NCBI GenBank assembly: GCA_949296475.1
Contig: CASFOK010000001.1
Coordinates: 20,535 to 84,534 of the forward strand
DNA: 64,000 nucleotides
Origin: an uncultured Pseudomonadota bacterium
GTDB taxonomy: Bacteria; Pseudomonadota; Alphaproteobacteria; Rs-D84
Reading direction: 5' to 3'
In this document: positions 13,653 through 55,109 of the stretch, piece by piece
Numbering within the stretch: the first letter of the stretch is position 1
How the letters are laid out: every line of letters starts with the position of its first letter
The notes under the pieces: model-generated
What the model saw: only the letters and a program-made list of their open reading frames with translations
Databases searched by the model: none
What the model was told of the DNA's origin: nothing
Made by a program: the position numbers and the translations under genes

Positions 13653-13673
13653 ATTATATCCGCAATCAATATG

Positions 13674-15221: not shown

Positions 15222-15239
15222 TTTTCTTTCCTTCCGTTT

Positions 15240-15923
15240 TTATATACTCGTTTCTACTGAATAACCGGTATCCAGTGGGTCACCGTTTCCAGAATCTATT
15301 TCGTATTCCGAAACGCGAAGCCCCAGCGGGTTATTCAAACGATCTGACCAGTCTATTCGTGCGTTATCGCTTTTATCCACTTTTATTTTTATTCTATACT
15401 CTTTTTTATCCGACTGTCTATCATTATCTGCACAGAAATAATAAAATTTTACAATATATGTGTCTTCTGCGTGCGGGGTTAGTGCATTATTATCAAATTC
15501 CACGCTGCAAGAAAACTCAAAATCCGGCAAGTCAGACATCCAAGCGTTCCACATATTGGTTTGCGTAAATTCGTTATAAACTTCCTGGGTTGACCATGCG
15601 TGAACAATACTGTCTGGTCCATCGTTATTCCATTTTGTGCGCATTAGCCCCGCATTAGGTACGATTTCGTTTCTTGCCTTGACGTATTCCAAGATGAACG
15701 CTTTTTCATAGTTTATGAAATTTTCATCCGAAGGCGCCATTTCTCGCAATACGATTTGCAGATCGCTTTTTGGACGAGACATCAAGAAAAATACTTGTGG
15801 GCGATTTACGGGAAACATATTATATAACGTAAACAGCAACGCAACCAACACAACCAGCATTCCTGCGAACACGAATGTCATCAATCTGGATAGCAAAATT
15901 GGCGGTTCTATGCGGTCTTGCAA
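15240..15923 (-). CDS. virB8: Type IV secretion VirB8/TrbF-family protein (227 aa, bitopic)
   Basis: Short cytoplasmic N-terminus, a single TM, a periplasmic domain, and a C-proximal NPLG motif (RLNNPLGLRVSEY). Confidence 0.7.
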   Translation of the reverse strand: MQDRIEPPILLSRLMTFVFAGMLVVLVALLFTLYNMFPVNRPQVFFLMSRPKSDLQIVLREMAPSDENFINYEKAFILEYVKARNEIVPNAGLMRTKWNNDGPDSIVHAWSTQEVYNEFTQTNMWNAWMSDLPDFEFSCSVEFDNNALTPHAEDTYIVKFYYFCADNDRQSDKKEYRIKIKVDKSDNARIDWSDRLNNPLGLRVSEYEIDSGNGDPLDTGYSVETSI

Positions 15924-28241: not shown

Positions 28242-29309
28242 ATGTCAACAGAAAAGAAAATTATAGCAATTGATGCAATGGGCGGGGACAAGGGACCCAA
28301 CGCCGTTCTTGGTGGAATTAACCAATTCTTATATCAAAACGGTGAAGATAAGGTGTTTTTTCGTATATTTGGTAACGAAAAACAATTATTGAAATTATTG
28401 GCAAAGTATTCACGTGTTGCCCGTAATTGCGAGATTATTAATGCGCCAGACGTCATCAAAGGAACCGATAAAATACGTGACGTCATTCGTCACGCCCAAG
28501 AGACGTCTATGTATATGGCGATAAAGGACGTTCGTGAAGGTAAATCTGACGCGGTCATTAGTGCCGGAAACACGGGTATTTTAATGTCGTTGTCTAAACT
28601 GGCGTTAAAAACCATTGAAGGAATATCAAGACCTGCCATTACAACGATGTTGCCGTCAGGCGGCGGCGATTCTCGCGTGGTTGTATTAGATCTGGGGGCA
28701 AACGTTCAATGTGACGAAGGGAATTTATTTGATTTTGCTGTTTTGGGCAGTGTGTACGCCGAAGTTATCGGAAAAATGTCACGACCAAAAGTCGGTGTAT
28801 TAAACATCGGCGAAGAAGATACAAAAGGTAACGAGACTTTGCAGAAATTGAACAAATTGTTAACAGCGCATAAAGATGAGTTGCCATATGAATATATCGG
28901 TTTCGTTGAAGGTAATGATATAGGCGGCGGAAACGTACAAGTCGTTGTTACAGACGGGTTTACCGGTAATATAGTATTAAAGACCGTAGAAGGTACCGCA
29001 AAACTAATAAAACGCGTGTTGGTAGATAATTTAAAGAAGTCTATTTTGGCGATTATCGGCGCGTTTTTCTTGGTTCATGTATTTAAAAGGCTGAAACACA
29101 AGATTGATCCGCGTTCTTATGCTGGGGCTACTTTTTTAGGCTTAAAGGGGTTCGCGGTTAAAACGCATGGGAACAGCGATGCGTTGGCTTTTGCGAACTC
29201 TATAAAATATGCTGCCGATTTAACGCATGCAAACTTGAACGATGTTATTAAAGAGCGTGCAGAATCTGTTGCAAAAATTCGGTCGGAAATATTAACGCAA
29301 GAAGAATAA
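28242..29309 (+). CDS. plsX: phosphate acyltransferase PlsX
   Basis: IAIDAMGGDKGP motif and full-length similarity. Confidence 0.9.
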   Translation: MSTEKKIIAIDAMGGDKGPNAVLGGINQFLYQNGEDKVFFRIFGNEKQLLKLLAKYSRVARNCEIINAPDVIKGTDKIRDVIRHAQETSMYMAIKDVREGKSDAVISAGNTGILMSLSKLALKTIEGISRPAITTMLPSGGGDSRVVVLDLGANVQCDEGNLFDFAVLGSVYAEVIGKMSRPKVGVLNIGEEDTKGNETLQKLNKLLTAHKDELPYEYIGFVEGNDIGGGNVQVVVTDGFTGNIVLKTVEGTAKLIKRVLVDNLKKSILAIIGAFFLVHVFKRLKHKIDPRSYAGATFLGLKGFAVKTHGNSDALAFANSIKYAADLTHANLNDVIKERAESVAKIRSEILTQEE

Positions 29310-29314
29310 ATATA

Positions 29315-29337
29315 CAGCCCCGTGCGGGGCTTTTTTC
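29315..29337 (+). terminator. rho-independent terminator after plsX
   Basis: agccccg-tgc-ggggct hairpin followed by T6. Confidence 0.7.
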
Positions 29338-29418
29338 ATTGTTTTTATAGGAATAGATGAATATTGATATTGTTTAAAATTTAAGCGATTTTTGTATTGT
29401 ATATAAAGGTTGTATAAT

Positions 29419-32112
29419 ATGAAAAAATCGCTTGTTTTTGTGTCGCTTATTGTTTGTTCAAGGGCGTATGCCACGGATGTAGATAATTTTACCGATTTTT
29501 ATAACGCGTATAAGAATTATGCGACAGAAAACAGCATAACTATAACAGGCGACATAACGTCAACGCGTTTAATCAGCGTACCCGGTGCAGAAAGTACGAT
29601 AATTAACGGGGGCGGTTTCGGTTTTGATGGCGGGGCATTTAACGGCTTTACGGTGTCAAGTGGGTATACAATGTCTTTGACGGACGGGGGCGGTTTTACT
29701 GTTTCTGGTCAAACGGCCAATGTGAATAGTTCTTTTAATAATTTTTATCAATCTGGACAAGGGGCGGTATTTGCAAACCTTGGTGGTAGTTTGACTGTAT
29801 CTAACTCTGCGTTTACAAATAATTCTGCACGTTTAGGGGGCAGCGTTTTTTATCAAAGTAATAATGCTACTTTGAACGTGTCGGATAGTGTTTTTGATAC
29901 TAACACCACAACGCGAAATGGCGGTGTAATATATACACAATACGGTACGAATGCGATTATAAACAACAGTTTTTTTCAGGGAAATTCAGCCAGTCAATAT
30001 GGAGGGGTTGCGTTTAATGACGGTAATTTGACTATATCTAATGGTGTGTTTGTTTCAAATACAGCATCAAGTGGTGCGGCGATATATAATTCTAATACGA
30101 TTACATTAAGCGATGTTTATTTCTCTGGAAACACCGGCAGTCAAGGCGGTGGTGCAATTTATAGCACGGGTATGATGAATCTTGAAAACGGTATATTTGA
30201 AAATAATACAGGTCAAACGGGCGGGGCGATTTCAAATTATGGCATAGTGGGTGATACTTTATATGCAGTGATAAAAAATGCTAGTTTTACAGGTAACAGT
30301 GCTACATACGGTGGTGCGGTGTATAATTGGGATGATATGTATATAATAGATAGCAGTTTTACAAATAATTCTGCAACAGATAATGGCGGTGCAATATTTA
30401 ATTTAAATGCGTTGTTTTTGATTGCTCAGAACGCGGATATCGTATTTAGCGGAAATACAGTATCCGGTGAATCTAATGCGATTTATTCGTCTGAATCGTT
30501 ATTTTTAAATGCGGCGCCACAATATCAGATAACTTTTAATGACAAGATTACAGGTTCTGGTTCGTTGATTGTGAACAGAGCATATGAACTGGAAAATGAT
30601 ACAATGCCAGCCGGAGGTACCATAGTTCTAAATGAAGATATGTCAGGGTTTACAGGGAACGTAACAATAGAATCCGGCATTGTAACAGTTACAGATAGCG
30701 GTAATTTTTTTAATGCAAACGATTTAACTGTTTCAGGTGGCGTTTTAAATTTAGGTTTAACAAATGCAACGGTTACTTCTGCAAACTTTCAATCTGGTGC
30801 GACTTTACGTTTGTCTGTTCAAGATGTGGATAATTATGGTTTTTTAACGGCGGATTCGTTTAATATATCTGAAAACGCCGCAATAGATGTGATTCTTGGC
30901 AGCAGTGCTATGGATGGCGTCAGTTCTCTGCGATTACAATTATTGCGCAGCAGTCAGGTTATAACGGATAATTTCTTTCCGGAAATAAGCAATAATATTT
31001 ATGATTTTATAAAACTTGGTAATGGTTGGTACGAAATTGTTCAATCAAGTTCAGTCTTGGATGTTATAAAAAACGCCGGAGGAACACAAAATAATGAAAA
31101 TACCGCGCTTGGATGGCAGGATATGTTGCTGACCGATAACAGCGTAACGAATGAAGTTTATGAAAAACTAAATGAGTTGGTTCAATTAGATGCGGTTGAG
31201 TATATAAAGGCGTTAACTGCTTTGGCGCCTTCACCTGCGCCACTGATGCAGATACTTGGTACTGCATATATTGATAGACTTGATAATATGGTGCACGATA
31301 GGCAAGAATATTACGTTGGTAACGGAATATTGTGGGGTTCGTTGTTTGGTTCGGGTGGTAAATTAAAAGAAAATAATTTTTATGCGGACTTTGATATACA
31401 TGGTTATGGTTTAGGCTTTGGTGCCGAATATAATTTTGATAATTGGGACGTTGGTGCCGCGTATACGTATCAGTACGATAAATTGGCAAGTTGGGCAAGG
31501 TCAATTATTGCGCCTACACATGGCATAGGGCTGTATGCAAAATATGATAACCGAAGTTTCATTTGGAATAATTATGCCGGTTTCTTTTATACGGATATGG
31601 ATGAAACGAAAAACGTTGCGGGAATACACTTGTTTGATAACACGGATGTTTATACAACTGGTGTGTGGTCTGACATAGGTTATGTTGTACCTGTTTATAA
31701 ACTAAATTTTATCCCTTACATAGGTACTCGGTACATGTCGGTGCATCGTGGTTCTTCTGTTGATACAGCAGGTCAAGAAATATCAAACGCAAATTTAGAT
31801 TTTTTAACCACGTATGCAAGATTGTCCGCAGAATACAATTTCAGTTATGACGATGAATTGACGATTACGCCTATAATAGAATTAGGGGCATCATATGATT
31901 GGCACGCGGCTGTTGAAGATATAAACGTGCTTATAATGGGAAATGAATATTCTATTGCTACACAACGTTTATCGCATTGGCAAACGTCCGGGGGCATAAA
32001 ACTAAAATTAGGTGTTGGTGAAGTTTACGACGTAACGTTCGGTGCAGATTTTTCCGTTAGACAAGGGTATTATAACTATTCTGGTAATATACACGGCGTT
32101 TTAAGGTTTTAG
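29419..32112 (+). CDS. autotransporter with Pmp-type (Chlam_PMP-like) repeat passenger and C-terminal beta-barrel
   Basis: Signal peptide MKKSLVFVSLIVCSRAYA. At least 8 FxxN...GGA[IVL][FY] repeats. The C-terminal roughly 280 aa is rich in alternating aromatics and ends in F (GVLRF). Confidence 0.75.
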   Translation: MKKSLVFVSLIVCSRAYATDVDNFTDFYNAYKNYATENSITITGDITSTRLISVPGAESTIINGGGFGFDGGAFNGFTVSSGYTMSLTDGGGFTVSGQTANVNSSFNNFYQSGQGAVFANLGGSLTVSNSAFTNNSARLGGSVFYQSNNATLNVSDSVFDTNTTTRNGGVIYTQYGTNAIINNSFFQGNSASQYGGVAFNDGNLTISNGVFVSNTASSGAAIYNSNTITLSDVYFSGNTGSQGGGAIYSTGMMNLENGIFENNTGQTGGAISNYGIVGDTLYAVIKNASFTGNSATYGGAVYNWDDMYIIDSSFTNNSATDNGGAIFNLNALFLIAQNADIVFSGNTVSGESNAIYSSESLFLNAAPQYQITFNDKITGSGSLIVNRAYELENDTMPAGGTIVLNEDMSGFTGNVTIESGIVTVTDSGNFFNANDLTVSGGVLNLGLTNATVTSANFQSGATLRLSVQDVDNYGFLTADSFNISENAAIDVILGSSAMDGVSSLRLQLLRSSQVITDNFFPEISNNIYDFIKLGNGWYEIVQSSSVLDVIKNAGGTQNNENTALGWQDMLLTDNSVTNEVYEKLNELVQLDAVEYIKALTALAPSPAPLMQILGTAYIDRLDNMVHDRQEYYVGNGILWGSLFGSGGKLKENNFYADFDIHGYGLGFGAEYNFDNWDVGAAYTYQYDKLASWARSIIAPTHGIGLYAKYDNRSFIWNNYAGFFYTDMDETKNVAGIHLFDNTDVYTTGVWSDIGYVVPVYKLNFIPYIGTRYMSVHRGSSVDTAGQEISNANLDFLTTYARLSAEYNFSYDDELTITPIIELGASYDWHAAVEDINVLIMGNEYSIATQRLSHWQTSGGIKLKLGVGEVYDVTFGADFSVRQGYYNYSGNIHGVLRF

Positions 32113-32122
32113 CGGCGTTCGT

Positions 32123-32159
32123 AAAAAAAATAGAACCGTCAACAATTACTTGTTGACGG
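32123..32159 (-). terminator. rho-independent terminator on the minus strand. It may also act bidirectionally.
   Basis: ccgtcaacaa-ttact-tgttgacgg hairpin followed by T8 on the minus strand. Confidence 0.6.
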
Positions 32160-32232
32160 CTGCTCCCTTCCTTCTGGTTCCCCAGAAACTGTTTAACATG
32201 CATGCCTTGTGATAACCGCGCTTGCGGGTATA

Positions 32233-32568
32233 TCAGGCAGCTTTTGCAATTTTATCTGTCGCGTTATTATCTGCGGCGTCTATGATTTTCTTTGCCTCTG
32301 AAAATACCATTTCTTTCACGCGCAGAGCCAAAGTTTTTGTTTCTAGGCTTTCTGCGGCGACATCAAAATTATCTGTTCTTATTTGTAGTGATACATACGC
32401 CCCAACCAAAGAATTGCGTGGCAAATCTTCAATAGAACGTGGCGCATTGTTTTGTCCGATTTGCAGTTCATCAGATAAAGATATTATCTGTCGGTCTTCG
32501 TTAACCCAAACTGTGGTTGTTAATACTTGGTTCAAGGCAATCATTATTTCTTTAATATTTTTTGACAT
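32233..32568 (-). CDS. hypothetical protein (111 aa)
   Basis: ORF with good RBS spacing and its own terminator. No recognised family. Confidence 0.45.
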   Translation of the reverse strand: MSKNIKEIMIALNQVLTTTVWVNEDRQIISLSDELQIGQNNAPRSIEDLPRNSLVGAYVSLQIRTDNFDVAAESLETKTLALRVKEMVFSEAKKIIDAADNNATDKIAKAA

Positions 32569-32862
32569 GCGCGGTTCCCTCCTTTTCGGGTTTTGTTTGA
32601 TTTAATCTTCGTTTGTATGTACATGGTGTATTTACAAATTCGGCGATTAAATTTTTTTGTTAATTTAATTTTTTTCCAGAAATCCGGGTTTTTAGCGGTT
32701 TTCTGAGGCTTTAAAACTTTTTCTCCTTGTCTATACCTAAATCTTAGAACAAAAACGAATCGCAGGTCAAGTGGAAAATGCATTTATTTTAATTTTATTT
32801 TAAAAAAGATGAATTTTACTCTTTAAACCATAAAATACCATAAAGTAATTATAAATTGTCAT

Positions 32863-32890
32863 TGACAACCATAAAAACACGTGCTAGATT
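32863..32890 (+). promoter_or_regulatory. sigma70-like promoter upstream of mraZ
   Basis: TTGACA-16nt-TAGATT. Confidence 0.4.
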
Positions 32891-32944
32891 TCATAAGAAC
32901 TCGGATAAGAAACAGGGCAGATGCCCGCAAACAGAGACCATAAA

Positions 32945-33394
32945 ATGTCATTGTTTCTCTCATCTTATGAAAATCGTTTGGATACCAAGGGGCGTATATC
33001 TGTACCGGCTTCTTTCCGGGCTTCAATTGCGTCAGACAGGTTTGCCGGCGTCGTGTTATATCGGTCCTTTACCCATAAGTGCATAGAAGGTTTGTCTATG
33101 TCTCGGATGGAGCAATTGGCCACCGCAACGGATAAAATGGGTGTTTTTGATGACGGCTTAGACGATTTATCTGCCATGTTGTTTGCGGATGCCAGACCTT
33201 TGACTTTTGATGTCACAGGGCGCATCGTAATACCGAACGATTTATTGCGCTATGCGGGAATAAAAGATACCGCCGTGTTTGTTGGGCGCGGTAACAGTTT
33301 TCAGATATGGAATCCTGCTGAATTTGAAAAAATACAGGCCAAAGCATTGGATAATTTGCGCAAAGCAAAACCAAATTTAATAATCGGGCAATAA
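32945..33394 (+). CDS. mraZ: transcriptional regulator MraZ. It is orphan: rsmH and the dcw genes do not follow.
   Basis: Two DxxGR motifs (DTKGRISVP and DVTGRIVIP). The ORF could also start at 32921. Confidence 0.8.
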   Translation: MSLFLSSYENRLDTKGRISVPASFRASIASDRFAGVVLYRSFTHKCIEGLSMSRMEQLATATDKMGVFDDGLDDLSAMLFADARPLTFDVTGRIVIPNDLLRYAGIKDTAVFVGRGNSFQIWNPAEFEKIQAKALDNLRKAKPNLIIGQ

Positions 33395-33462
33395 TTATTT
33401 TTATATAAATTATATATGTTGATATAAAGTTAGAAATTGCAGATTCAATTAAATCATAATCA

Positions 33463-33487
33463 AAAAATCCCCAAATGGGGATTTTTT
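33463..33487. terminator. bidirectional terminator between convergent mraZ and the 785-aa gene
   Basis: aaaaatcccc-aaat-ggggatttttt. Confidence 0.65.
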
Positions 33488-35843
33488 AGGGTTCTTCATC
33501 AGGGTCACATGTGTTTGTTTCGGAATTATATGTCCCCGTGTTGCATACGCAACTTGGATAAGTCCCTGTTGAATCAGCCGGGCAAGTGGTTGTCACAGCG
33601 TCTGCGTCACATGTGTTGGTTCTTTGGTTATAAGTATATCCTGCATTGCACTGACAGTTAGGATATTTTGAACCCGCTTGTGCGTTTGCCGTCGGGCATG
33701 ACATACATACGTTAGATGTTGGTATATATGTTGCCGATGAACTGGTGCAAACACAATCTGGGTAAGTACCACTTGCATTAGAAGGACAAGTCGGATTTGA
33801 TAATACCTGACCAACCCAGTTTGCCATATCAGAAACGCTTGTTCCTGTTGCGCCTGTTGCAGACATACATGTGGTTATATTGGCTTTACATGCGTTGATA
33901 GCGATGTTTATGCTTGTTGGATTTAATGTATTATAATTATTCTGTGCCAAGCAAGAAGATACGTCTGTTATACATGTTTCTGCATATTCTGATAACAACG
34001 AGTCTTGGGCAGACTTAATTTGTATCAGCGTGCGGTTCAAGAACTCTTTTATCACGTTGTTTGTCGGATTGTATTTCAGGTTTTGACCCGTGCCAGTATA
34101 AGTAATATCTTGGCATTTGTTTAATACAGACATGCACATGCCGTAATTTTTGCCGTCTTTGTCGTCGTGGTATCCGATTTTGTTTTGTAAAAATGCGGAC
34201 ATATTTGTAGACGGACTTTGTGAAGCGTTGGCAGTAACCGTGTTTGTTATGTATTCGCTTAGTAAGCCTGAATCACCCCAAGCATTTTTATTGTTATCGT
34301 ATGTCCATGTTTGATATATTTCACCGTTGTCAACGTCACCTGGAACGCCTGGTTTGCTGCCGATGACTATTTCGCCGTTTACGATAAACTTACCTGTTGG
34401 ATCCAAACAGTTTTCATAATCGCTGCCACAGACAAAGTCGTCCTGCATGCAAGAATCCAACGCATTTACGCAACCGCGTAAATCATAAGCGTTCTTTTGT
34501 TGTGCAACCAATAAACGTGCCTTTTGTAAAACGCTTTTTGCGTTTCTGACGGTCGCGCTCATTTGGTCATTAGAATCAGTTAAACTGCGTTCATATATGA
34601 TACATTGCTTATCAATTTCCAAATCATACGAATTTGTTATGACCGTGATATCAACGCCTTGGGCTGCGCAACTGTTTAATACAGATGCTTTACAACGAGC
34701 CGCCGCCGTTTTATACAGTTGTTCGCCACGTTGATTGCTGATGCTGCTGGTGTCCGAAGAAGTGCCCAGTAATGCCCCTAAATCAAAACCAGTGCTGTCA
34801 ATCGTAAAGTCCAGTAACCCTGTTAAGTCCAGACTTAAACCGCTGGTCGTTGTAGAAGATGCTTTTCCTGTTTCAACGTCAATAATCATCTTTTTGATTT
34901 TGTCCAGGTCGTTTTTCAGCTGAGTATTATCAGTTGTCGTCTGCATTTCTAATTCAGCCTCGGTCTGTGTGAACAGCGTTTCTATTTCATCGGAACTTAG
35001 ACCTATGTATTGGATTTTTTGGGCGACGTCTTGCAGTTCTTCGGTTGCTTGTTTCAAAGCAGCCTCTGTTTCTGCGTAATTTTTCAAGTTCGCACTGCAA
35101 CTGCAACGACCTTGGTTATCATCTAATACGTTACAGAAGTTATCCATACAAGAGGTATATTGTGCCTTACAAAAATCTGTAATCTGTGCCAATTCATCTA
35201 ACGACATGCTGGAAGAAGTATCCGTCGTGGTTGTAGTTGTTGTCCCAGCGCGAATCGTCGGGGTGCGCGAACGAACAGCAGACGTACTTGTTCCTACGCG
35301 GCTGCTAACGTACAAGGGGGTTGCAACGGTGTCGGTCTGAACAATTGATGCTCTTGCATTTTGTGCCCTGTTATTATTGGTAGAACTTTGGCGCGTTGTC
35401 ACTGTCTGCACGGGCGCAATAGAACGAGCAGAAGTAGTCGCGGTACTTCCTGTTGTCGTTGGACGCCCAGACGATACCGTTCTTGTTGAAGTTGCGGTGT
35501 TAACCGTGTTCGTTGCTGTCGTTCTTGCAGTAACTGTACGCGCCGGTGAAACTGTTCTTGTTGTTGTGGTATTGCGACTGCTTGTCGTGCTAGTAGAAGG
35601 GATTGCACGTGAAGCCGTTATTCTACCTGTTGCAGTACGCGGACTTACAGATGTTGTCGTAACAGGAACAACCGGGGCCGCTTGCTTTGTTTCTGTTTTT
35701 TCTTCTGCGACCTGTTCTTCCTCGGCAGGTGCAGAGTATTCGTCAGAATACTCCATCACTTCTTCGTAATAATAAGCAGGTGCAACCTCGGCAAAAGCGG
35801 GTAAAACCAACAAGCCACTAAGTACTGCGATAAATCTTTTCAT
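33486..35843 (-). CDS. secreted 785-aa protein. It has a signal peptide, an acidic stretch, a roughly 190-aa Thr/Ser/Arg-rich low-complexity region, a coiled-coil-like segment, and a large Cys-rich C-terminal region with 3 tandem roughly 26-aa Cys repeats.
   Basis: MKRFIAVLSGLLVLPAFA signal peptide. The region RTVSPARTVTARTTATN... Repeats of the form G[ST]YPxCxCxxG.TYN..TNTCD. Confidence 0.7.
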   Translation of the reverse strand: MKRFIAVLSGLLVLPAFAEVAPAYYYEEVMEYSDEYSAPAEEEQVAEEKTETKQAAPVVPVTTTSVSPRTATGRITASRAIPSTSTTSSRNTTTTRTVSPARTVTARTTATNTVNTATSTRTVSSGRPTTTGSTATTSARSIAPVQTVTTRQSSTNNNRAQNARASIVQTDTVATPLYVSSRVGTSTSAVRSRTPTIRAGTTTTTTTDTSSSMSLDELAQITDFCKAQYTSCMDNFCNVLDDNQGRCSCSANLKNYAETEAALKQATEELQDVAQKIQYIGLSSDEIETLFTQTEAELEMQTTTDNTQLKNDLDKIKKMIIDVETGKASSTTTSGLSLDLTGLLDFTIDSTGFDLGALLGTSSDTSSISNQRGEQLYKTAAARCKASVLNSCAAQGVDITVITNSYDLEIDKQCIIYERSLTDSNDQMSATVRNAKSVLQKARLLVAQQKNAYDLRGCVNALDSCMQDDFVCGSDYENCLDPTGKFIVNGEIVIGSKPGVPGDVDNGEIYQTWTYDNNKNAWGDSGLLSEYITNTVTANASQSPSTNMSAFLQNKIGYHDDKDGKNYGMCMSVLNKCQDITYTGTGQNLKYNPTNNVIKEFLNRTLIQIKSAQDSLLSEYAETCITDVSSCLAQNNYNTLNPTSINIAINACKANITTCMSATGATGTSVSDMANWVGQVLSNPTCPSNASGTYPDCVCTSSSATYIPTSNVCMSCPTANAQAGSKYPNCQCNAGYTYNQRTNTCDADAVTTTCPADSTGTYPSCVCNTGTYNSETNTCDPDEEP

Positions 35844-35918
35844 AGCGAAAACTTCCCTTCTATTGTATTGATTTTATCACATTACGCTAATTATCGCAAA
35901 CAAAAAAACAGTATTAAT

Positions 35919-36956
35919 TTATTTTTTTATCTGGTATTTGTTGTTCGCGTTCAGTTGCCATTTCCAAGCGCTTTGCAGCGTTTCTGTCAATGTTCTTTTT
36001 GCTGACCAACCCAGTTTTTCTTTTGCTAAATCGGCATTTGCCCATAATTCTGGAACGTCCCCGGGGCGTCTGTTTGTAATTTCATACGCTACTTTTTGTC
36101 CGGTTGCGCTTTCAAACGCGTTTATCAGTTCCATTACCGACAAACCGCGACCTGTTCCAAGATTAAAAATCTCAAGTCTTGTTTCATGTTCCAGCATATA
36201 ATTTAAAGCGCAAACGTGCGCGTCTGCAACATCGTTGACATCAATATAATCGCGTATGCAAAAGCCGTCGCGTGTCGGATAGTCGTTACCAAATACGCTC
36301 AGTTTTTTCCTTATTCCTGCAACCGTTTGTGTTATATACGGCATCAAGTTATTTGGGACCCCCAGTGGTAATTCACCGATTTTTCCCGACGGGTGTGCGC
36401 CAATTGGATTAAAGTATCTAAGAATTACCGCGTGCATGTTTGATTGCGACTTAATTGCGTCTTTTATTATTGTTTCGCCGATTACTTTTGTTGCCCCATA
36501 AGGCGACGTGGCGGGCTGTAATGGCGTTTTTTCTGTAACGGGTAATGTTTCCGGTTCGCCGTAAACGCAAGCCGACGAAGAAAATACAAAGTTTGGTATG
36601 TTGAATTTTTTCATCATACATAAAACGTTTATCAAACTAAATAAATTGTTTTTATAATATTGCAACGGTTGTTGCACAGACTCGCCAACCGCTTTCAAGG
36701 CGGCAAAATGTATTACGCCGACAGAATCTGTGTTTTCAGCAAAAATTTGTTCTAGTTGTTCGGCGTTTGTGCAATCAACTTGTTTAAAATTGGGTTGCAC
36801 GTTTGTTATTTCTTTTATTTGATGAATGACGTCTGCGTGTGAATTACATAAGTTGTCTAGTATAAGAACGTCAAAACCACTTTGTTGCAGTGCAACAGCA
36901 GTATGAGAACCTATGTAACCGCAACCGCCGGTTATGATAATTTTTTTATTTTGCAT
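35919..36956 (-). CDS. galE: UDP-glucose 4-epimerase
   Basis: GGCGYIGSH Rossmann motif and YxxxK. Full-length GalE similarity. Confidence 0.85.
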   Translation of the reverse strand: MQNKKIIITGGCGYIGSHTAVALQQSGFDVLILDNLCNSHADVIHQIKEITNVQPNFKQVDCTNAEQLEQIFAENTDSVGVIHFAALKAVGESVQQPLQYYKNNLFSLINVLCMMKKFNIPNFVFSSSACVYGEPETLPVTEKTPLQPATSPYGATKVIGETIIKDAIKSQSNMHAVILRYFNPIGAHPSGKIGELPLGVPNNLMPYITQTVAGIRKKLSVFGNDYPTRDGFCIRDYIDVNDVADAHVCALNYMLEHETRLEIFNLGTGRGLSVMELINAFESATGQKVAYEITNRRPGDVPELWANADLAKEKLGWSAKRTLTETLQSAWKWQLNANNKYQIKK

Positions 36957-37108
36957 TGTTTATAAACTTCCTTTTTTGCTGTTTAAGTATACAATAAAAA
37001 ATAATATCGTTCCAAGAAAATATTCCTGATTATTAAATTTTTTAATGAAATTGACTTGTAAAACTAAATAATGTTATATATAATCCCAAGCACAAGGTAA
37101 AAATATAA

Positions 37109-38695
37109 TTGTCAGTATTAAAAAAAGTTTCTTTATTTGTATTTTCGTTACCGTTCATAGGTTGTACAACGGTCCCTACGACCATGTACGATAAGCGATT
37201 AGAGAATTATACCCCAAAAATCACAACCGAAGATTTTAACTATGATCCCATGCAAACGCCCATTGCGCAATGTTATGTGAAAGAGTTAAATGCCGCAGAA
37301 GACGTCAGTGGCGCAACATTGATAGAAGACGGGTTGTCGGCTTTTGTCATCAGGGCTGCCTTTGCGCGTATGGCGACCAAGACAATTGATTTACAGACTT
37401 ACATTTATAGTAATGACTTTTCTTCCAAGGTATTAATCGGTGAACTAAAAAACGCTGCTGACCGTGGGGTCAAGGTCAGGATTTTATTAGACGACTATGG
37501 AACAAAATCAGATATTGCAGATGTTATGTTATTAAACCAGCATCCGAATATAGAAGTAAAGGTTTTTAATACTGTTGCGTACAGGTCAAAGTTACTTTAT
37601 TATCCGCAGTTTTTATTGGATTTTAATCGTTTAAATTCTAGAATGCACAATAAGTTATTTATCGTGGATAATGTGGCGTATATTACCGGCGGTAGAAATG
37701 TAGGCAGTAATTATTTTTATCCCGAAACCGCGTCTAATTTTTCTGACACGGACGTTTTATTTATCGGCGACATGACAAAATATGCGACGGCCAGTTTTGA
37801 TGAATATTGGAACTATCATTTATCTATTCCCGCGTCTGTTTTTCCAAAGGCGAAATCAAAAAAGGCGATGCGTAAGTTAGAGAAAAAATTTGCCGAAATA
37901 GAAAGAAAAAGTAAAGACGCAATTAATCAATATAACAAGATTATCTCGTTGGCACAATGCGAGTATAAAAAGAAACAATTTGATTTCAGTTGGGGACGCG
38001 GTAAATTCCTTGCGGATCCTCCTTCAAAGGTAGAAATGTCAATGCGCGAAAAAGAAGAATATCGTGGTGACATCATCAGGGCGCTACAAAAACTTTGGGA
38101 TGAAACAGAAAATTCTGTATATTTGTCCGCAGCATATTTTGTCCCAGGGCAAGGCGGACTAGAGCATATGTTACGCGAAGAAAAATCTGGTGTTCATATG
38201 ACGATTGTGACGAATTCGCTGGCGTCTACGAACGCACCTACGGTTTATGCAAAATGGGAAAAATATAGAGAGCAACTGATAGAGTCTGGCGCAGATGTTT
38301 ACGAATTTATGTTGTCGGCTGAAAATTTGCGTGGCAAAGAACATGACCGGGAAAGAAAGCAGTCAAGTTTTTCCGTGCTTCACAGCAAGACGATTGTTTT
38401 TGATGACGACATTTCTTGGATTGGCAGTTTCAATCTGGACCCGCGTAGCGCGTATTATAACACGGAAAACGTCGCTGTTTTTGAAAGTAAAGAATTTGCC
38501 GATAAGTTACGCGAAATGATTATCAAGGATACAAAAACATCGTGGCATGTCACCATGGAAGATGGTGACCCTATATGGACAGGCAGCAGACCAGGCGACA
38601 AGAAACCGCGCGTGTATCATAAATCACCAGATACAAGTATATTCAGACGTATTTGGAAAAATATGACGAATTTGGTACCAGAAAAGTTTGTGTGA
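37109..38695 (+). CDS. phospholipase D superfamily lipoprotein (two HKD motifs)
   Basis: Lipobox LPFIGC. HNKLFIVDN and HSKTIVFDD motifs. TTG start at 37109. Confidence 0.75.
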   Translation: MSVLKKVSLFVFSLPFIGCTTVPTTMYDKRLENYTPKITTEDFNYDPMQTPIAQCYVKELNAAEDVSGATLIEDGLSAFVIRAAFARMATKTIDLQTYIYSNDFSSKVLIGELKNAADRGVKVRILLDDYGTKSDIADVMLLNQHPNIEVKVFNTVAYRSKLLYYPQFLLDFNRLNSRMHNKLFIVDNVAYITGGRNVGSNYFYPETASNFSDTDVLFIGDMTKYATASFDEYWNYHLSIPASVFPKAKSKKAMRKLEKKFAEIERKSKDAINQYNKIISLAQCEYKKKQFDFSWGRGKFLADPPSKVEMSMREKEEYRGDIIRALQKLWDETENSVYLSAAYFVPGQGGLEHMLREEKSGVHMTIVTNSLASTNAPTVYAKWEKYREQLIESGADVYEFMLSAENLRGKEHDRERKQSSFSVLHSKTIVFDDDISWIGSFNLDPRSAYYNTENVAVFESKEFADKLREMIIKDTKTSWHVTMEDGDPIWTGSRPGDKKPRVYHKSPDTSIFRRIWKNMTNLVPEKFV

Positions 38696-38944
38696 TAAAA
38701 TTAACCCGGGTAATTTCGGGTTATTTTTTTAATTTACATTTTTTTGCGTTTTTATCAGCAATAGACAAAGCAATGGCAACTGCTTGTTTGTGTGGTTTGC
38801 CTGCCTTCATTTCTGTTCGTATGTTTTCTGATATTGCTTTCTTTGAACAACCTTTGATGATTGGCATATTTTACCTCTTGTTATGATGCAATAATTGTAT
38901 CATAAAATCGTATAGACAAAGGATAAGAATAATGTCTGATTATT

Positions 38945-39274
38945 TTAATGATGTGCGAACAAATGTAAAATCAGGCTGATAAAAAATATGACCGTAATGA
39001 TTCCAAGTATTATTTTTTGTGTTCTGTGACCACCGTGTTCGTGGCAATGCTCGCAGTCACATTTGCAGTCGCGTAATACAAGATACCACGATAAAACAAG
39101 CATGACGGCAGAAAACACAAACAACCAAGGCTCAAACCAATGAGGAATAAATTCTGCGTGCGCAAATTCCGGCGCAAATAAAGATATGACAGATAACACT
39201 ATTGGCAGAACGCAACAAAATAAATGCGGTAAAATACTTGCGATGATTCCAAGTTTTATGGCTTTGTTTTTCAT
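38945..39274 (-). CDS. MerT-like small membrane metal-transport protein (orphan)
   Basis: FCCVLP in TM1 and a cytoplasmic CKCDCEHCHEH cluster. Start at MKNK is chosen to avoid overlap with the tRNA. Confidence 0.5.
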   Translation of the reverse strand: MKNKAIKLGIIASILPHLFCCVLPIVLSVISLFAPEFAHAEFIPHWFEPWLFVFSAVMLVLSWYLVLRDCKCDCEHCHEHGGHRTQKIILGIITVIFFISLILHLFAHH

Positions 39275-39295
39275 GTTGAAAACCCTTGAATTTCT

Positions 39296-39371
39296 TGGCA
39301 TCCCCAACAGGAATCGAACCTGTATCAAAGGTTTAGGAAACCTCTATTCTATCCAGTTGAACTATGGGGAC
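39296..39371 (-). tRNA. tRNA-Arg (anticodon CCU)
   Basis: Hand-folded cloverleaf. Acceptor GUCCCCA/UGGGGAU (G1-U72), anticodon loop UUCCUAA, T-arm ACAGG-UUCGAUU-CCUGU, encoded CCA. Confidence 0.8.
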
Positions 39372-39457
39372 GAATGTTTATTATTTTATTCATAGATTTT
39401 AATATTGCAAGTTGTAATGACGATTTGTATAATATCGCAAGTAAAAAAGGAATTTAT

Positions 39458-40396
39458 ATGGGAAGTAGATTGATTGGATACGGTTCTTATTTGCCCGAAC
39501 GTATTATGACCAATCAAGATTTTGAAAAAATTATGGATACCACGGACGAGTGGATTGTTCAACGTACTGGCATGCGTGAACGTCATTTCGCGCGCGAGGA
39601 TGAAACCGTTGTTGATATGGCCGTGATCGCCGCGCAAAGGGCCCTGAAAAATGCGGGGTTGACAATCAATGACATTGATATGCTGATGGTTGCAACCACA
39701 ACGCCGGAATTGGACTTTCCGTCGGTTGGAGTACAAGTTATGGGGCGTTTGGGTTCCACAAATAATGCGCCGGCTTTTGACATTCGCGGGGCTTGTACGG
39801 GTTATATTTATGCGTTGCACTGCGCGCGCGCGTTTTTTACGGCTGGTATGCACCATCGGATAATGTTAATCGGTGCAGAAAAAATGACGCGGTTTATTGA
39901 TTGGACTGACCGCAGTACTGCTGTTTTGTTTGGCGACGGGGCGGGGGCGCTGATATTTGAACATTCTACGTCCAGTTATTCGGGTATCATAGATACTGTC
40001 GTTATGTCTGATGGGAAAGAATTTGATATGTTACACGGTTCCCCAGACCACAGAATCATAATGAACGGACCAGAAACTTATAAAAAAGCCGTAACCTTGA
40101 TGCCAGAGGCGGCAAATTACATTATGGAACATGCAGGTATTACGGCAGATAATGTTGATTGGATAATACCGCATCAGGCAAATTTGCGTATAATTCAAAG
40201 TGGCGCGGCAAGGCTTGGTTTCCCGTTGGAAAAAATATTGGTAACGGTTGATAAGCATGCAAACACCAGTGGTGCATCGGGTGTTTTGGCTTTGTCTTAT
40301 GCTTTTGATAACGATATAATCAAGAAGGGTCAACTGATACTGTACCCCGCATTTGGCAGTGGTCTAACGTGGGGCGCGGCTTTAATTAGGGTGTAA
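39458..40396 (+). CDS. fabH: 3-oxoacyl-ACP synthase III
   Basis: Strong FabH match including the active-site Cys region. ATG at 39458 (MGSRLIGYGSYLPE). Confidence 0.9.
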   Translation: MGSRLIGYGSYLPERIMTNQDFEKIMDTTDEWIVQRTGMRERHFAREDETVVDMAVIAAQRALKNAGLTINDIDMLMVATTTPELDFPSVGVQVMGRLGSTNNAPAFDIRGACTGYIYALHCARAFFTAGMHHRIMLIGAEKMTRFIDWTDRSTAVLFGDGAGALIFEHSTSSYSGIIDTVVMSDGKEFDMLHGSPDHRIIMNGPETYKKAVTLMPEAANYIMEHAGITADNVDWIIPHQANLRIIQSGAARLGFPLEKILVTVDKHANTSGASGVLALSYAFDNDIIKKGQLILYPAFGSGLTWGAALIRV

Positions 40397-43932: not shown

Positions 43933-45414
43933 ATGAGAGTCAGTGTAGTTTCTTTGTTAAGTGTTTTTTTTATGCCTTTCGTTGCGTTGGCGTCTAACGA
44001 GGGGGTGCCTTCTTATTATCAGAACAATTCAACAACGACGGTTAATCGTTCGGCATATAATCAATATCAGCGACAAGGATACACGACATATGTTGGTCAA
44101 TCGGGGGGCAAGCAAATTGTTGAAAGTCGTTCTTACTCTTATCAGGTTCCGCGACCGGTGGTCCCGCAAATTAGCGGTACGATGACGACGAACGGTATTG
44201 CGATGCCTGTTGCCGAAGAAGCGGCAACATCTGTATATGCTAAATATGCCAGAAGATTTGCAGATTTTGAATTTGAAACAGGTGTAAATTCCGTCTTGGA
44301 ATGGGATGATATGATTTACAATGAAATTGGTGTTGGCGTACAACATAATTTCAGTTTGCGTAATTTTGATATGTTTGCTTACGGTGAATATAGTATGGGG
44401 TATATGTCACATGGTGGACTGTCCATGGATTATGACTTAAAGCCGTATGATGAATCAGACCCTTCTTATGGAATTTTCACTATTTCTGTTGGCGATCAGA
44501 CGGGCAAGACAAATCACTTGAAGTTAGGAATCGGCGCACATCATATTTGGGACATTGGCGGATGGAAGTTATCCCCGTCGTTTGGTTATGAAATTTTCAA
44601 TCATAACTTGGAAATGTCAGATCATTTGTATCCCAACCCTGGCATCTTTTTACCGTTAATGACGAACATGGGCGACTATGTTTACGGTGATGTAAATGGT
44701 AATTATTATGCTTTACCCATAAATATGGAGGCACCAGAAGATTGGTATCAGGTGTGTATGTCACCGGAAGATATAAAACTGGTTCAGGCCCCCGCAGGTG
44801 GTGCAATAATTGACCTGGGGACAGAGTTGGTAACCGGCGATTACAATCCGGATATGGGGTATGTACCATGGGGTGTAGATTCTGGTGAATGTGTAATTAT
44901 TGGCGGTGATGGTCCTATACTTGTAGACGGTACTACGCATATTTATAATACTACGTGGAGCGGTTTTTATATCGGGCTTGAGATAGAAAAACAAATGACC
45001 CTTGTTGACAAGTTGCGTTTTTATTTCCAGGTTGGTTTGCCGAAATATTCATCCGAAGGTATCTGGCCAAACAGAACGGATTGGCAACAAAACCCCAGTT
45101 TTATAGATGAGGGTAGTAACGGTGCGTACTCTTATACCGCGGAAATGGAGTATAACTATAAATTATCAGACCGTATGCAATTGGCAATAAAAGTAGATAC
45201 CGATTATTTCTATGTCGGAAAAATCGGCGGGGAATTATATTTGGCGGAATATAGTCAATATTTAGTTGATGAAAACGGTTTTTACATATTGGACGATAAC
45301 GGTTTCCCAATTTTAGAAACTGTGCCGGCCAGCACGCAGTATATCAGCGAGCAGTTAAAACACGCTGCGTGGCAATCGTTTGGTTTGCATATCGGAATAA
45401 AGTATTCTTTCTAA
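43933..45414 (+). CDS. putative outer-membrane beta-barrel protein
   Basis: Signal peptide. Gly/Tyr-rich. C-terminal ...IGIKYSF. Confidence 0.5.
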   Translation: MRVSVVSLLSVFFMPFVALASNEGVPSYYQNNSTTTVNRSAYNQYQRQGYTTYVGQSGGKQIVESRSYSYQVPRPVVPQISGTMTTNGIAMPVAEEAATSVYAKYARRFADFEFETGVNSVLEWDDMIYNEIGVGVQHNFSLRNFDMFAYGEYSMGYMSHGGLSMDYDLKPYDESDPSYGIFTISVGDQTGKTNHLKLGIGAHHIWDIGGWKLSPSFGYEIFNHNLEMSDHLYPNPGIFLPLMTNMGDYVYGDVNGNYYALPINMEAPEDWYQVCMSPEDIKLVQAPAGGAIIDLGTELVTGDYNPDMGYVPWGVDSGECVIIGGDGPILVDGTTHIYNTTWSGFYIGLEIEKQMTLVDKLRFYFQVGLPKYSSEGIWPNRTDWQQNPSFIDEGSNGAYSYTAEMEYNYKLSDRMQLAIKVDTDYFYVGKIGGELYLAEYSQYLVDENGFYILDDNGFPILETVPASTQYISEQLKHAAWQSFGLHIGIKYSF

Positions 45415-45426
45415 GAAGGTGTTCAT

Positions 45427-46506
45427 ATGGCAGTTAAAAGTGTTGTTGCGCGCCTTTGTGGCGTTGCGTTGTTTTGTGTGGCCCCGCTTAACTTGTGGGC
45501 GGGTGCCGGCGTTTTTGATATAGACAGATGGTATGCGATAATTGAAGATATCAAAGGCAAGGCCGCCAGTCAGAATATTTCGCAAGATACGATAAATGCG
45601 ACATTTCGTTCGCCGGCGTTTATACCTTCTATTGTAAAAAGCGACAGAAATCAAGCAGAGTTTAAATTAACCTTGGATGGGTATTTGGCGCGTACAGTTA
45701 ATCAGCGCAGAATTACAGAAGGTAAAAAAATGCGTCAAACTTATCCTACAATGCTATCGCGGGTAGAGCAGAAACATGGCGTTCAACCACATGTGATATT
45801 GGCGTTTTGGGGTTTGGAATCCAATTATGGCGCTAATAAAGCACGTCATAAATTAACGGATGCGTTTTTGACTTTGATGTATGAGGGGCGCAGGCAAGAG
45901 TTTTTTGAAAAGCAGTTATTGGCACTGATGAAAATAGCAGATGATAATGAATTGGACATAAATGATATTCAAGGCAGTTGGGCGGGCGCGATGGGGCACT
46001 TTCAGTTTATACCGACAACATTGATGCAGTATGGTGCAGACGGTAACGGCGACGGTAAAATAGACATTATTCATAGCGTTGGCGATGCAATGTTTAGTGC
46101 TGGCAACTATTTAAATCGCCTGGGTTGGAACGAGAACGAAAAAATAGTTCGCAAGGTTGTCATACCAATTAATTTTGATACGTCTTTATTGGACGGCAAA
46201 ACAAAAAAGAATTTGTCAGATTGGGCGAATATGGGCGTTACGAATCCTGACGGCAGTCCGTTACCTGTTATGGATATGACGGCTGGTTTGGTGGCGGATA
46301 TAAATATGATTAACGATGCCAAGGCTACGGCGATTGCGCACAGTAAATCAAACGTCATAGACCCGAATGCGATTGATACTGATGTTGCCCCACAACCTGT
46401 TGTTGTTGCTTATTTAACATACCCCAACTTTTACAGGATAAAACGTTGGAATAATTCTAATTGGTATGCGATAGCGATTGCGACATTGGCGGATGAATTG
46501 AAATGA
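45427..46506 (+). CDS. lytic murein transglycosylase (MltB/SLT_2 family)
   Basis: ILAFWGLESNYG motif, signal peptide. Confidence 0.8.
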   Translation: MAVKSVVARLCGVALFCVAPLNLWAGAGVFDIDRWYAIIEDIKGKAASQNISQDTINATFRSPAFIPSIVKSDRNQAEFKLTLDGYLARTVNQRRITEGKKMRQTYPTMLSRVEQKHGVQPHVILAFWGLESNYGANKARHKLTDAFLTLMYEGRRQEFFEKQLLALMKIADDNELDINDIQGSWAGAMGHFQFIPTTLMQYGADGNGDGKIDIIHSVGDAMFSAGNYLNRLGWNENEKIVRKVVIPINFDTSLLDGKTKKNLSDWANMGVTNPDGSPLPVMDMTAGLVADINMINDAKATAIAHSKSNVIDPNAIDTDVAPQPVVVAYLTYPNFYRIKRWNNSNWYAIAIATLADELK

Positions 46507-46607: not shown

Positions 46608-47063
46608 ATGTCTCGTCAAGTTCAGTTCAGGCGCGGCAGTGCTGTTGAACACGATAGTTTTATCGGCGCCGAAGGCGAAATAACCGTAGATACAACAAAC
46701 AATACGTTGCGGGTTCATGATGGTGTTAACCCCGGCGGTTTTGCCTTGGCGCGTCAAGATTTAGTTGGTGATACCGTTGTTGATACTTTTGTATCCGAAG
46801 ATGGTGCTTTTTGGTATCGTAAATATAAGTCAGGCTGGCTAGAACAAGGGGGGATTTCTGTTAGTGCGAATATCATTTTTCCGGTGTCTTTTATGAATAC
46901 TAAATATACAGTCATGGCGTTGCCGGTAATGATTGACGGCGGTGTTGGAACGATATCCGTAAGTTACGCCAACAAGATAAAAACAAGCATAAGCATACAA
47001 GTTCGTTGGAATGGTGGTGCCGTAGATGATGCGTCCAGAATGTGGTTCGCATGCGGTTTTTAA
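46608..47063 (+). CDS. phage tail-fibre-like small protein (Mtd_N-like N-terminus plus tail-collar-like C-terminus)
   Basis: QFRRGSAVEH...GAEGEITVDTTNNTLRVHDGVNPGG matches the RRGT...GE...DT...DG tail-fibre N-motif. C-terminus ...MWFACGF. Confidence 0.5.
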   Translation: MSRQVQFRRGSAVEHDSFIGAEGEITVDTTNNTLRVHDGVNPGGFALARQDLVGDTVVDTFVSEDGAFWYRKYKSGWLEQGGISVSANIIFPVSFMNTKYTVMALPVMIDGGVGTISVSYANKIKTSISIQVRWNGGAVDDASRMWFACGF

Positions 47064-47107
47064 TATGTGATAAACATACCAGTGCACATGTTGCACTGGT
47101 ATGCGGG

Positions 47108-48999: not shown

Positions 49000-49012
49000 T
49001 ATTATGTACCTT

Positions 49013-49696: not shown

Positions 49697-49700
49697 GTTA

Positions 49701-52823: not shown

Positions 52824-52839
52824 GATAAGAATCCTTTCA

Positions 52840-54892: not shown

Positions 54893-55109
54893 TTATGTAC
54901 CTCTTGATACAATAAATGCCCCGTGAAACAGGGAAAATACATCATGTTATGTTCCTTTGCGTTTGAAGACAAAGCAGTACAAAGTTACATTGTACTGAAC
55001 AATAGCATAGTATAGTATTTAATTAATCGCAAGCAAAAATAAAAACAATTGATAAAGGCTGTATTGTTTGTTATTCTTGATATTATTATAATGATATAAA
55101 GGATTTTTT

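Follow-up and report, generated by a model that had tools for sequence, protein, structure and literature searches.

An autotransporter with Pmp-type repeats in the gut alphaproteobacterium Candidatus Enterousia: a probably native type Va protein and presumed surface adhesin

The window analyzed here, 64,000 nucleotides from an uncultured alphaproteobacterium of the order Rs-D84, carries an autotransporter gene whose passenger repeats the paired FxxN and GGA motifs familiar from the Pmp adhesins of Chlamydiae, and the question raised by this locus is whether it came from Chlamydiae or belongs to the lineage in which it is found. The coding sequence is complete (29419..32112, + strand, stop codon 32110-32112) and its exact 897-aa product is an entry in a public protein collection. 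Two candidate starts on the + strand, TTG at 29410 and ATG at 29419, lead to the same ORF end at 32112. The ATG is the likely start because the spacing of a Shine-Dalgarno-like AAAGG (29405..29409, + strand, read from the sequence), 9 nt 5′ of it, fits the ATG, while the TTG leaves no spacer. Just past the plsX stop codon, a putative terminator-like GC hairpin with a T-run (29316..29331, + strand; 6-bp stem with 5 GC pairs and a TTTTTC tail), identified by consensus match, points to separate transcription of the autotransporter gene as a unit of its own. Beyond the gene, a putative terminator-like 12-bp palindromic hairpin (32134..32161, not assigned to a strand; detected on the minus strand with a T-run) lies between it and the convergent orf111. 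A scan of the interval from plsX to the gene for sigma-70-type promoters gave no convincing + strand promoter and was uninformative, total matches being below the shuffle expectation, and no homopolymer or simple-sequence tract indicative of phase variation was present upstream or in the 5′ coding part.

The domain order shown by the analysis is a signal peptide (by eye), a PF02415-type beta-helix passenger, a helical linker, and an autotransporter barrel. The putative Sec-type signal peptide, aa 1-18 (29419..29472, + strand), reads MKK, SLVFVSLIVCS, and RAYA followed by TD; cleavage would follow an AxA-type motif, the A-x-A at its end is kept across the family consensus, and aa 3-12 form a helix of low pLDDT in the AlphaFold2 model. 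In that model, the passenger, aa 19-545 (29473..31053, + strand), consists of an N-terminal cap and a continuous parallel beta-helix whose three-strand rungs succeed one another regularly between about aa 37 and 542 (mean pLDDT 91.3), followed by helices at aa 546-626 and a barrel at aa 636-896. Within the passenger, the Pmp-type repeat array spans aa 132-357 (29812..30489, + strand) in 9 rungs of 24-30 aa, 7 with a strict FxxN...GG[ASV][IVL] motif and 2 degenerate (aa 211 and 343). The broader pattern F..N.{3,9}GG[AGSV][IVLFA] matched 8 times, 7 times within aa 132-326 and once at aa 431. These motif pairs are not a composition effect, since 20,000 composition-preserving shuffles of the passenger reached a maximum of 3 and a mean of 0.055. 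The first-pass annotation had counted at least 8 such repeats, which agrees with the 8 matches and 2 degenerate units at a spacing of 24-30 aa, and the four repeat strings it quoted are all present, at aa 132, 186, 235, and 314. The repeats match PF02415 at 49.7 bits in the whole protein and at 65.6 bits, in 6 stretches, in the N-terminal 394 aa (cut-off 20.6 bits), and TIGR01376 (POMP_repeat) at 38.5 bits (cut-off 15). Across aa 105-372, 40 of the 55 invariant alignment columns are F, N, or G, in agreement with the buried, rung-stabilizing role modeled for the FxxN and GGA residues in chlamydial Pmps (PMC10715098).

The passenger is joined to the barrel by an alpha-helical linker of five helices, aa 546-626 (31054..31296, + strand), defined by the AlphaFold2 model and the family alignment, in which GGTQNN.NTA..WQ and ALTALAPSPAP are nearly invariant. 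As in NalP and EspP, the final helix of this linker (aa 609-626) presumably occupies the barrel pore. The type Va translocator beta-barrel, aa 636-897 (31324..32109, + strand), was identified by PF03797 and Foldseek; when the C-terminal 330 aa were scanned alone, PF03797 matched at 68 bits (E=1.4e-18) over model positions 1-254 of 255. The protein ends in ...GVLRF, an aromatic beta-signal for BAM, and F897 is invariant in 35 sequences. With both families above threshold, the description of the gene as a Chlam_PMP-type repeat autotransporter with a C-terminal barrel ending in F stands. All of the top 18 PDB fold matches were type Va translocators, with TM scores of 0.81-0.84 for NalP, 0.76-0.83 for EspP, 0.79 for Hbp, and 0.75-0.79 for BrkA, and the barrel fold is shared with the solved set as a whole (NalP 1UYN, EspP 2QOM/3SLJ, Hbp 3AEH, BrkA 3QQ2, AIDA-I 4MEE, EstA 3KVN; target-normalized TM 0.64-0.84). 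Sequence identity to these structures is, in contrast, 10-16%, and their passengers are proteases, an esterase, or pertactin-like helices. A sequence profile search of the PDB returned a single, spurious match (E=0.0034), so that no solved relative is detectable by sequence, and DSSP divided the modeled barrel into 13 strand segments, not a clean 12.

Horizontal acquisition of a Pmp-family adhesin from Chlamydiae would account for the PF02415 and TIGR01376 matches and for the order of signal peptide, repeat beta-helix, and barrel, and a second outer-membrane family named after Chlamydiae, PF17251 (Pom), is found in the window (37.8 bits, 43933-45414). The likeness to the Pmps (PmpA-I of C. trachomatis, Pmp1-21 of C. 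pneumoniae) extends to the type Va architecture, to beta-helix rungs built on paired FxxN and GGA(I/L/V) motifs whose residues form the conserved core, and to a fast-evolving surface protein, its location predicted in the present case, in a reduced-genome bacterium. [quoted passage not shown] PF02415, present or absent, does not tell a genuine chlamydial Pmp from a generic beta-helix of this repeat family, and a match to it is no indicator of chlamydial ancestry.

Other features of the protein set it apart from the Pmps as these are described in the literature. The PF07548 middle domain (PMP_M), named as characteristic of Pmps (PMC11166332), was found neither at aa 368-627, where no Pfam family matched at E<=10 (assuming that PF07548 is within the Pfam-A copy used), nor in the whole-protein scan at E<=1, and it is likewise absent from the best 120 homologs. 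Where Pmps have a short flexible hinge and a beta-hairpin C-cap, the Enterousia protein has a helical linker of ~80 aa, and its rungs of 24-30 aa have three strands in the model, whereas those of Pmps have at least 27 aa and five strands (PMC10715098). At 897 aa, it holds ~9 motif rungs, and it occurs once per genome, as against 9-21 paralogs in Chlamydia (PMC8326573). No chlamydial protein was identified among the close homologs.

An exhaustive search with a profile of the linker and barrel (355 positions) gave 1,138 relatives. In most of the best 150 of these the alignment covers the complete linker, and a consensus of the 40 nearest shows the linker motifs again; PF03797 is present in all 40, PF02415 in 5, and PF07548 in none. 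Where near relatives are named, they belong to gut bacteria and archaea, and the nearest outgroup includes MBS7093744.1, an 'autotransporter domain-containing protein [Azospirillum sp.]' from a gut MAG. With this protein and other gut alphaproteobacterial autotransporters (clusters P0146-P0289), the Enterousia protein shares the linker-plus-barrel unit and the motifs GGT.NN..TA.AW and ALTALAP..AP, in alignments that span the whole profile at ~140-207 bits. Their passengers differ, ranging from ~450 to 3,600 aa; beside the few of the 40 nearest that have PF02415, others carry Cthe_2159 or pectate-lyase-like domains. Non-chlamydial PF02415 proteins (from Methanobrevibacter, Phycisphaerae, Trichomonas, Bradyrhizobium P0084, and 'Candidatus Aphodousia' P0049-P0067) also have repeats of this family, predicted to fold into a beta-helix, and several are likewise autotransporters with PF02415 and PF03797. 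The 'Candidatus Aphodousia' ESPR-PMP autotransporters align over 87% of the query at 26-27% identity. Proteins of this group come from other lineages, are longer (1,000-1,600 aa), and have a different N-terminal signal (ESPR) or a different C-terminal anchor, and the archaeal and Gram-positive ones have no barrel. Chlamydial origin or membership was rejected in view of the missing PF07548, the other linker architecture, the single copy, and the gut Proteobacteria as nearest relatives; with the fixed position and native GC described below, acquisition from Chlamydiae is barely credible. The earlier suggestion of convergent or horizontally acquired adhesins thus gives way to what we consider, with good confidence, to be a native alphaproteobacterial type Va autotransporter that carries a widely distributed repeat type, Pmp-like in its working but outside the Pmp family, and is presumably a surface adhesin.

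The genomic setting is that of a resident gene. Full-length orthologs with 41-91% identity were found in 34 species-representative genomes of ~0.75-1.0 Mb from Candidatus Enterousia and related gut MAGs, which bears out the alphaproteobacterial background already recognized from the sequence. A pattern-based scan found one locus per genome in these 34 genomes, a count to be read with the incompleteness of MAGs in mind, and no paralog within the 64-kb window. A short distance downstream of rpoBC, plsX and mraZ enclose the gene, and the order autotransporter-orf111-mraZ beside rpoBC and plsX is fixed in 29 of the 34 genomes. Its GC content of 0.383 is near the window mean of 0.400, and the low-GC glycosyltransferase cluster at ~47-55 kb is 15 kb away. 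The placement of the gene in an accessory block by the first-pass annotation is contradicted by these data.

Given this fixed position, the rate at which the gene changes stands out: identity between species is 41-64% where that of rpoC is 91-95%, and dN/dS is 0.119 as compared to 0.019-0.077 in nine neighboring genes, in a comparison in which dS is a mosaic of 0.05-1.4, a spread that predicts recombination breakpoints, and the values for orf785 and pepO are unreliable owing to frame errors that gave stop codons, that of pepO to be ignored. The gene evolves faster than its neighbors and is intact and under purifying selection. Positive or diversifying selection is unsupported, with dN/dS at 0.12 gene-wide and at most 0.17 in every 90-codon window. 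Conservation of the barrel (0.59) is slightly below that of the repeat region (0.70), indicating that divergence is spread over the whole gene and not focused on exposed passenger surfaces.

Judging from chlamydial Pmps and from other autotransporters with a beta-helix, the most likely role of the protein is that of a surface adhesin of a partner-dependent bacterium; Rs-D84/Enterousia bacteria are without a TCA cycle, respiratory chains, and standard transporters and have been proposed to depend on a partner (PMC12306168). Following established type V secretion biology, the precursor would cross the inner membrane via Sec and lose its 18-aa signal peptide, BAM would insert the C-terminal barrel into the outer membrane, and the last linker helix would fill the barrel pore while the passenger exits C-terminus first and folds outside into a beta-helix of ~20 rungs. 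The invariant FxxN and GG(A/S/V)(I/V/L) residues would then form the helix core, with variable residues turned toward the solvent, and the exposed helix could attach Candidatus Enterousia to a host or partner cell, where exposure to immunity, phages, or partner variation might drive the fast divergence.

A long regular beta-helix passenger with no enzymatic domain is also what a self-associating autotransporter of the Ag43/AIDA kind would have, in which the helices of neighboring cells bind each other to cause aggregation or biofilm formation instead of host or partner binding, and chlamydial Pmps do oligomerize (PMC9289746). Against this, the Pfam scans gave no match to an AIDA or Ag43-type repeat family, and the rapid divergence between species also argues against self-association, which we regard as unlikely. 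Still less probable is a fate like that of VacA and the SPATEs, with the passenger cut off and set free to act as a soluble effector or toxin. The conserved QNN.N of the linker (aa 557-561) would fit such processing, being reminiscent of the Asn-Asn autocleavage sites of SPATEs; in SPATEs, however, the site is inside the barrel, whereas the model puts this NN in a helix far ahead of the putative pore segment at aa 609-626. Many autotransporter passengers are processed, chlamydial PmpD among them (PMC3419190), but Pfam scans of the whole protein and its parts gave no match in this passenger to a protease, lipase, pore-forming, or other effector domain. A retained surface adhesin is the reading that we prefer.

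Alone, this is an ordinary finding, since the wide occurrence of Pmp-type repeats beyond Chlamydiae is established; autotransporters, moreover, are ubiquitous in Proteobacteria. Its value comes from the context of Candidatus Enterousia, an uncultured gut lineage of the order Rs-D84 with genomes below 1 Mb and a proposed dependence on a partner, for which a single-copy, conserved, fast-evolving predicted surface beta-helix at a fixed locus is a concrete candidate attachment factor. The protein could act as a bait or antigen to find the partner organism or to enrich Enterousia cells. A more ambitious proposal, possible but doubtful at present, is that Candidatus Enterousia uses this autotransporter as its principal docking organelle, for attachment to a host or partner cell in a partner-dependent, Patescibacteria-like lifestyle, a second reduced-genome lineage having independently redeployed the Pmp-type beta-helix, and that its translocation unit, with the extended ~80-aa helical linker and the two invariant motifs, represents an undescribed autotransporter subfamily centered on gut Alphaproteobacteria. 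PF03797 went unreported in the whole-protein scan of the Enterousia protein and most family members likewise lack it in their precomputed Pfam annotation; because whole-protein hmmscan misses this family on compositionally biased proteins, automated annotation under-calls these autotransporters.

The autotransporter is encoded by a single open-reading frame spanning positions 29410/29419–32112 (+) of the window, with an AAAGG 9 nt upstream of the ATG at 29419 and a terminator-like hairpin (29316–29331) at the end of the upstream plsX gene. An exact match to the 897-aa product from this ATG is already present in a public protein collection. The pattern FxxN followed by 3–9 residues and GG[AGSV][IVLFA] occurs eight times in the protein; 20,000 composition-preserving shuffles gave 0.055 occurrences on average and never more than 3. 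All four repeat strings quoted in the first-pass annotation were found. The array (aa 132–357) consists of nine rungs, seven strict and two degenerate, spaced 24–30 aa apart. Among sequences that are 41–91% identical, 55 of the 268 columns in the repeat region are invariant and 40 of these are F, N or G, indicating that selection keeps the motif residues while the remainder drifts. This pattern agrees with models of chlamydial Pmps, in which these motifs are buried and stabilize the rungs (PMC10715098).

The Chlam_PMP repeat, PF02415, was matched at 49.7 bits by the whole protein and at 65.6 bits, in six stretches, by the N-terminal 394 aa (cut-off 20.6), and TIGR01376 scored 38.5 bits. The autotransporter barrel, PF03797, which had also been proposed, was recovered over the full model from the C-terminal 330 aa alone (68 bits, E = 1.4e-18) but went unreported by hmmscan for the whole protein, likely a filter effect of the N/G/S/T-rich sequence. 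For most family members the precomputed Pfam lists do not contain PF03797 either, and even PF02415 is marked "faint" there, so that the family is easily under-annotated as autotransporters.

An AlphaFold2 model built from 35 family sequences (mean pLDDT 91.3) contains an N-terminal signal-peptide helix, a cap and continuous beta-helix with three strands per rung (aa ~37–542), a linker of five helices (aa 546–626) and a beta-barrel (aa 636–896). The top Foldseek matches in the PDB were all classical type Va translocators (EstA, NalP, EspP, Hbp, BrkA and AIDA-I), with TM-scores of 0.81–0.84 for NalP, 0.76–0.83 for EspP and 0.79 for Hbp, and generic porins appeared only from rank 19 onward. A search of the PDB with the family sequence profile found no solved relative by sequence.

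Full-length relatives form ~40 clusters of 879–951 aa at 41–91% identity in a protein homolog search, beyond which homology drops sharply to partial matches of the repeats alone. In a collection of species-representative genomes, full-length orthologs were present in 34, one per genome, all uncultured gut Alphaproteobacteria MAGs, including Candidatus Enterousia avistercoris, excrementavium and intestinigallinarum as well as a closed 958,618-bp chromosome. The first-pass observation is confirmed, and its label of a Pmp-repeat autotransporter in an alphaproteobacterium is correct.

The accompanying proposals of chlamydial affinity and of convergence or horizontal acquisition are unsupported. 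The PF07548 middle domain in combination with the repeats is characteristic of the Pmp family (PMC11166332), and PF07548 is absent here, aa 368–627 being without any Pfam match even at E ≤ 10. The modelled 80-aa helical linker and three-stranded rungs of 24–30 aa differ from the short hinge with beta-hairpin cap and the five-stranded rungs of at least 27 aa in chlamydial Pmps (PMC10715098), and the single copy found in each of the 34 genomes contrasts with the 9–21 paralogs given for Chlamydia (PMC8326573). [quoted passage not shown] Our homolog matches added a Bradyrhizobium autotransporter and "Candidatus Aphodousia" autotransporters. The protein would function like a chlamydial Pmp but lies outside that family on the features that discriminate it; it is a new, uncharacterized protein of an already known type.

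The origin of the translocator was addressed by an exhaustive search of 1.84 billion representative proteins with a profile built only from the linker and barrel. This returned 1,138 relatives, 225 of them at E ≤ 1e-30, and among the best 150 most alignments run the full length of the profile, helical linker included. Scores drop from 372–567 bits inside the family to some 207 bits in the group that follows, one member of which is a gut-MAG protein named [quoted passage not shown] at NCBI. Among the best 40 of the 1,138, the linker motifs GGT.NN..TA.AW and ALTALAP..AP recur in the consensus, and PF03797 is present in 40/40, PF02415 in 5/40 and PF07548 in 0/40. Weaker genome matches were likewise from gut Alphaproteobacteria (Rhodospirillaceae RUG769, UMGS1574 and Proteobacteria bacterium CAG:495). 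Judged from sequence matches, the simplest reading is a translocation unit native to Alphaproteobacteria with interchangeable passengers, the Pmp-repeat helix being one of them. Nothing in the match lists, from which chlamydial proteins are absent, points to Chlamydiae.

The locus is also not part of the accessory block in which the first-pass annotation placed it. Upstream lie rpoB, rpoC, rpmF and plsX, and downstream orf111 (a 111-aa ORF), mraZ, orf785 (785 aa, probably a secreted or surface protein), galE, a gene for an enzyme of the PLD family and fabH. The order autotransporter-orf111-mraZ is conserved in 29/34 species genomes, usually with plsX upstream and otherwise pepO, and the GC content of the gene is native-like (0.383 vs 0.400 for the window). 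The ortholog sits in unrelated surroundings in the five genomes L023, L024, L025, L027 and L032 (42–46% identity), so the family is wider than the syntenic clade. The block meant was probably a low-GC (0.33–0.39) cluster at ~47100–54900 (-), 15 kb away, which encodes GT2 and GT4/GT1 glycosyltransferases, SAM methyltransferases and a UDP-GlcNAc 2-epimerase and is a surface polysaccharide locus.

Compared with L005, the closest species-level relative, the autotransporter is 91% identical while rpoB, rpoC and plsX are 98–99.5% identical; in more distant species the values are 41–64% while rpoC is at 91–95%. Its Nei-Gojobori dN/dS against L005 (0.119) was the highest of ten genes (others 0.019–0.077), yet far under 1, with every 90-codon window at or below 0.17, indicating purifying selection. 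Divergence extends across the whole gene, mean column conservation being 0.59 in the barrel vs 0.70 in the repeat region. Along the gene (vs L005 10001–12691), dS is a mosaic of about 0.05 to 1.4, at about 0.05–0.11 in codons 271–405 and 766–855 and about 1.3 in codons 631–765, which suggests recombination between diverged alleles.

The analysis establishes the domain architecture, a predicted fold, conservation throughout the lineage and purifying selection. By the general biology of type V secretion, the protein would be exported by Sec and its signal peptide cleaved after RAYA, the barrel would be inserted by BAM with the C-terminal ...LRF as the cue, the last linker helix would occupy the pore, and the beta-helix would be extruded from C to N, folding vectorially. 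Pfam/HMM scans detected no enzymatic or toxin domain in the passenger. Enterousia (GTDB order Rs-D84; Alphaproteobacteria incertae sedis in NCBI taxonomy) has genomes of about 0.75–1.0 Mb, lacks a TCA cycle, a respiratory chain and standard sugar, amino-acid or peptide transporters, and has been proposed to depend on partners (PMC12306168). By analogy with Pmps and other beta-helix autotransporters, and given this proposed lifestyle, we infer a surface adhesin for attachment to host or partner cells; self-aggregation and release of the passenger are less likely alternatives. The protein is of interest chiefly as a candidate for the factor by which an uncultured gut lineage with reduced genomes attaches.

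Several neighboring features were recorded. The convergent orf111 (32233–32568, -) is highly conserved (82–98%) and matches no Pfam or NCBIfam family. In 29/34 genomes it separates the autotransporter gene from mraZ, and it is absent beside the five non-syntenic orthologs. On L084, a contig with an identical autotransporter protein, calls of 103 aa and 79 aa (4815–5365, -) replace the single ORF and may reflect a strain difference or a frameshift. The mraZ gene (32921–33394, +) is solitary, the next gene being on the opposite strand, and the usual mraZ-rsmH-ftsL division/cell-wall cluster does not continue after it. The 785-aa protein (orf785, 33486–35843, -) matches no family. It starts with a signal-peptide-like segment, continues through a long half of low complexity rich in Thr and Ser, and finishes with a half rich in Cys; its position is conserved and its sequence fast-evolving (52–92% identity vs 80–99% for neighbors), and it is likely to be a further protein of the surface or a secreted one. 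Many bacteria have plsX and fabH side by side in an rpmF-plsX-fabH operon. Here (28242–40396) they are ~10 kb apart, separated by the autotransporter, orf111, mraZ, orf785, galE and a PLD/cardiolipin-synthase-like gene, and the interval differs among species, galE often being absent and fabH inverted in some.

Elsewhere in the window, T4SS core genes stand in a row (11202–15923, -), encoding VirB10/TrbI (816 aa; PF03743, 64 bits), VirB9/CagX (515 aa; PF03524, 81.5 bits) and VirB8 (227 aa). The presence of such a secretion system in a genome below 1 Mb is reminiscent of the Rickettsiales and fits a cell-contact lifestyle. VirB9/CagX ends in an unusual SPOR peptidoglycan-binding domain (PF05036, 27 bits), one of two SPOR fusions in the window, the other being the C-terminus of a D-Ala-D-Ala carboxypeptidase (PF00768; 3597–4772, +). 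A 493-aa ORF (43933–45414, +) matched PF17251, "Pom" (Protochlamydia outer membrane protein; 37.8 bits, cut-off 22.4), the second Chlamydiae-named outer-membrane family in the window; the match probably reflects a generic porin family, not descent from Chlamydiae. An isolated 151-aa ORF (46608–47063, +), adjoining a lytic transglycosylase gene (45427–46506), carries the phage tail-fibre domains Mtd_N (major tropism determinant N-terminal domain; PF18454, 52.8 bits) and Gp53-like_C (PF21882, 29.6 bits). It could be what is left of a prophage, or a receptor-binding protein that has been co-opted.
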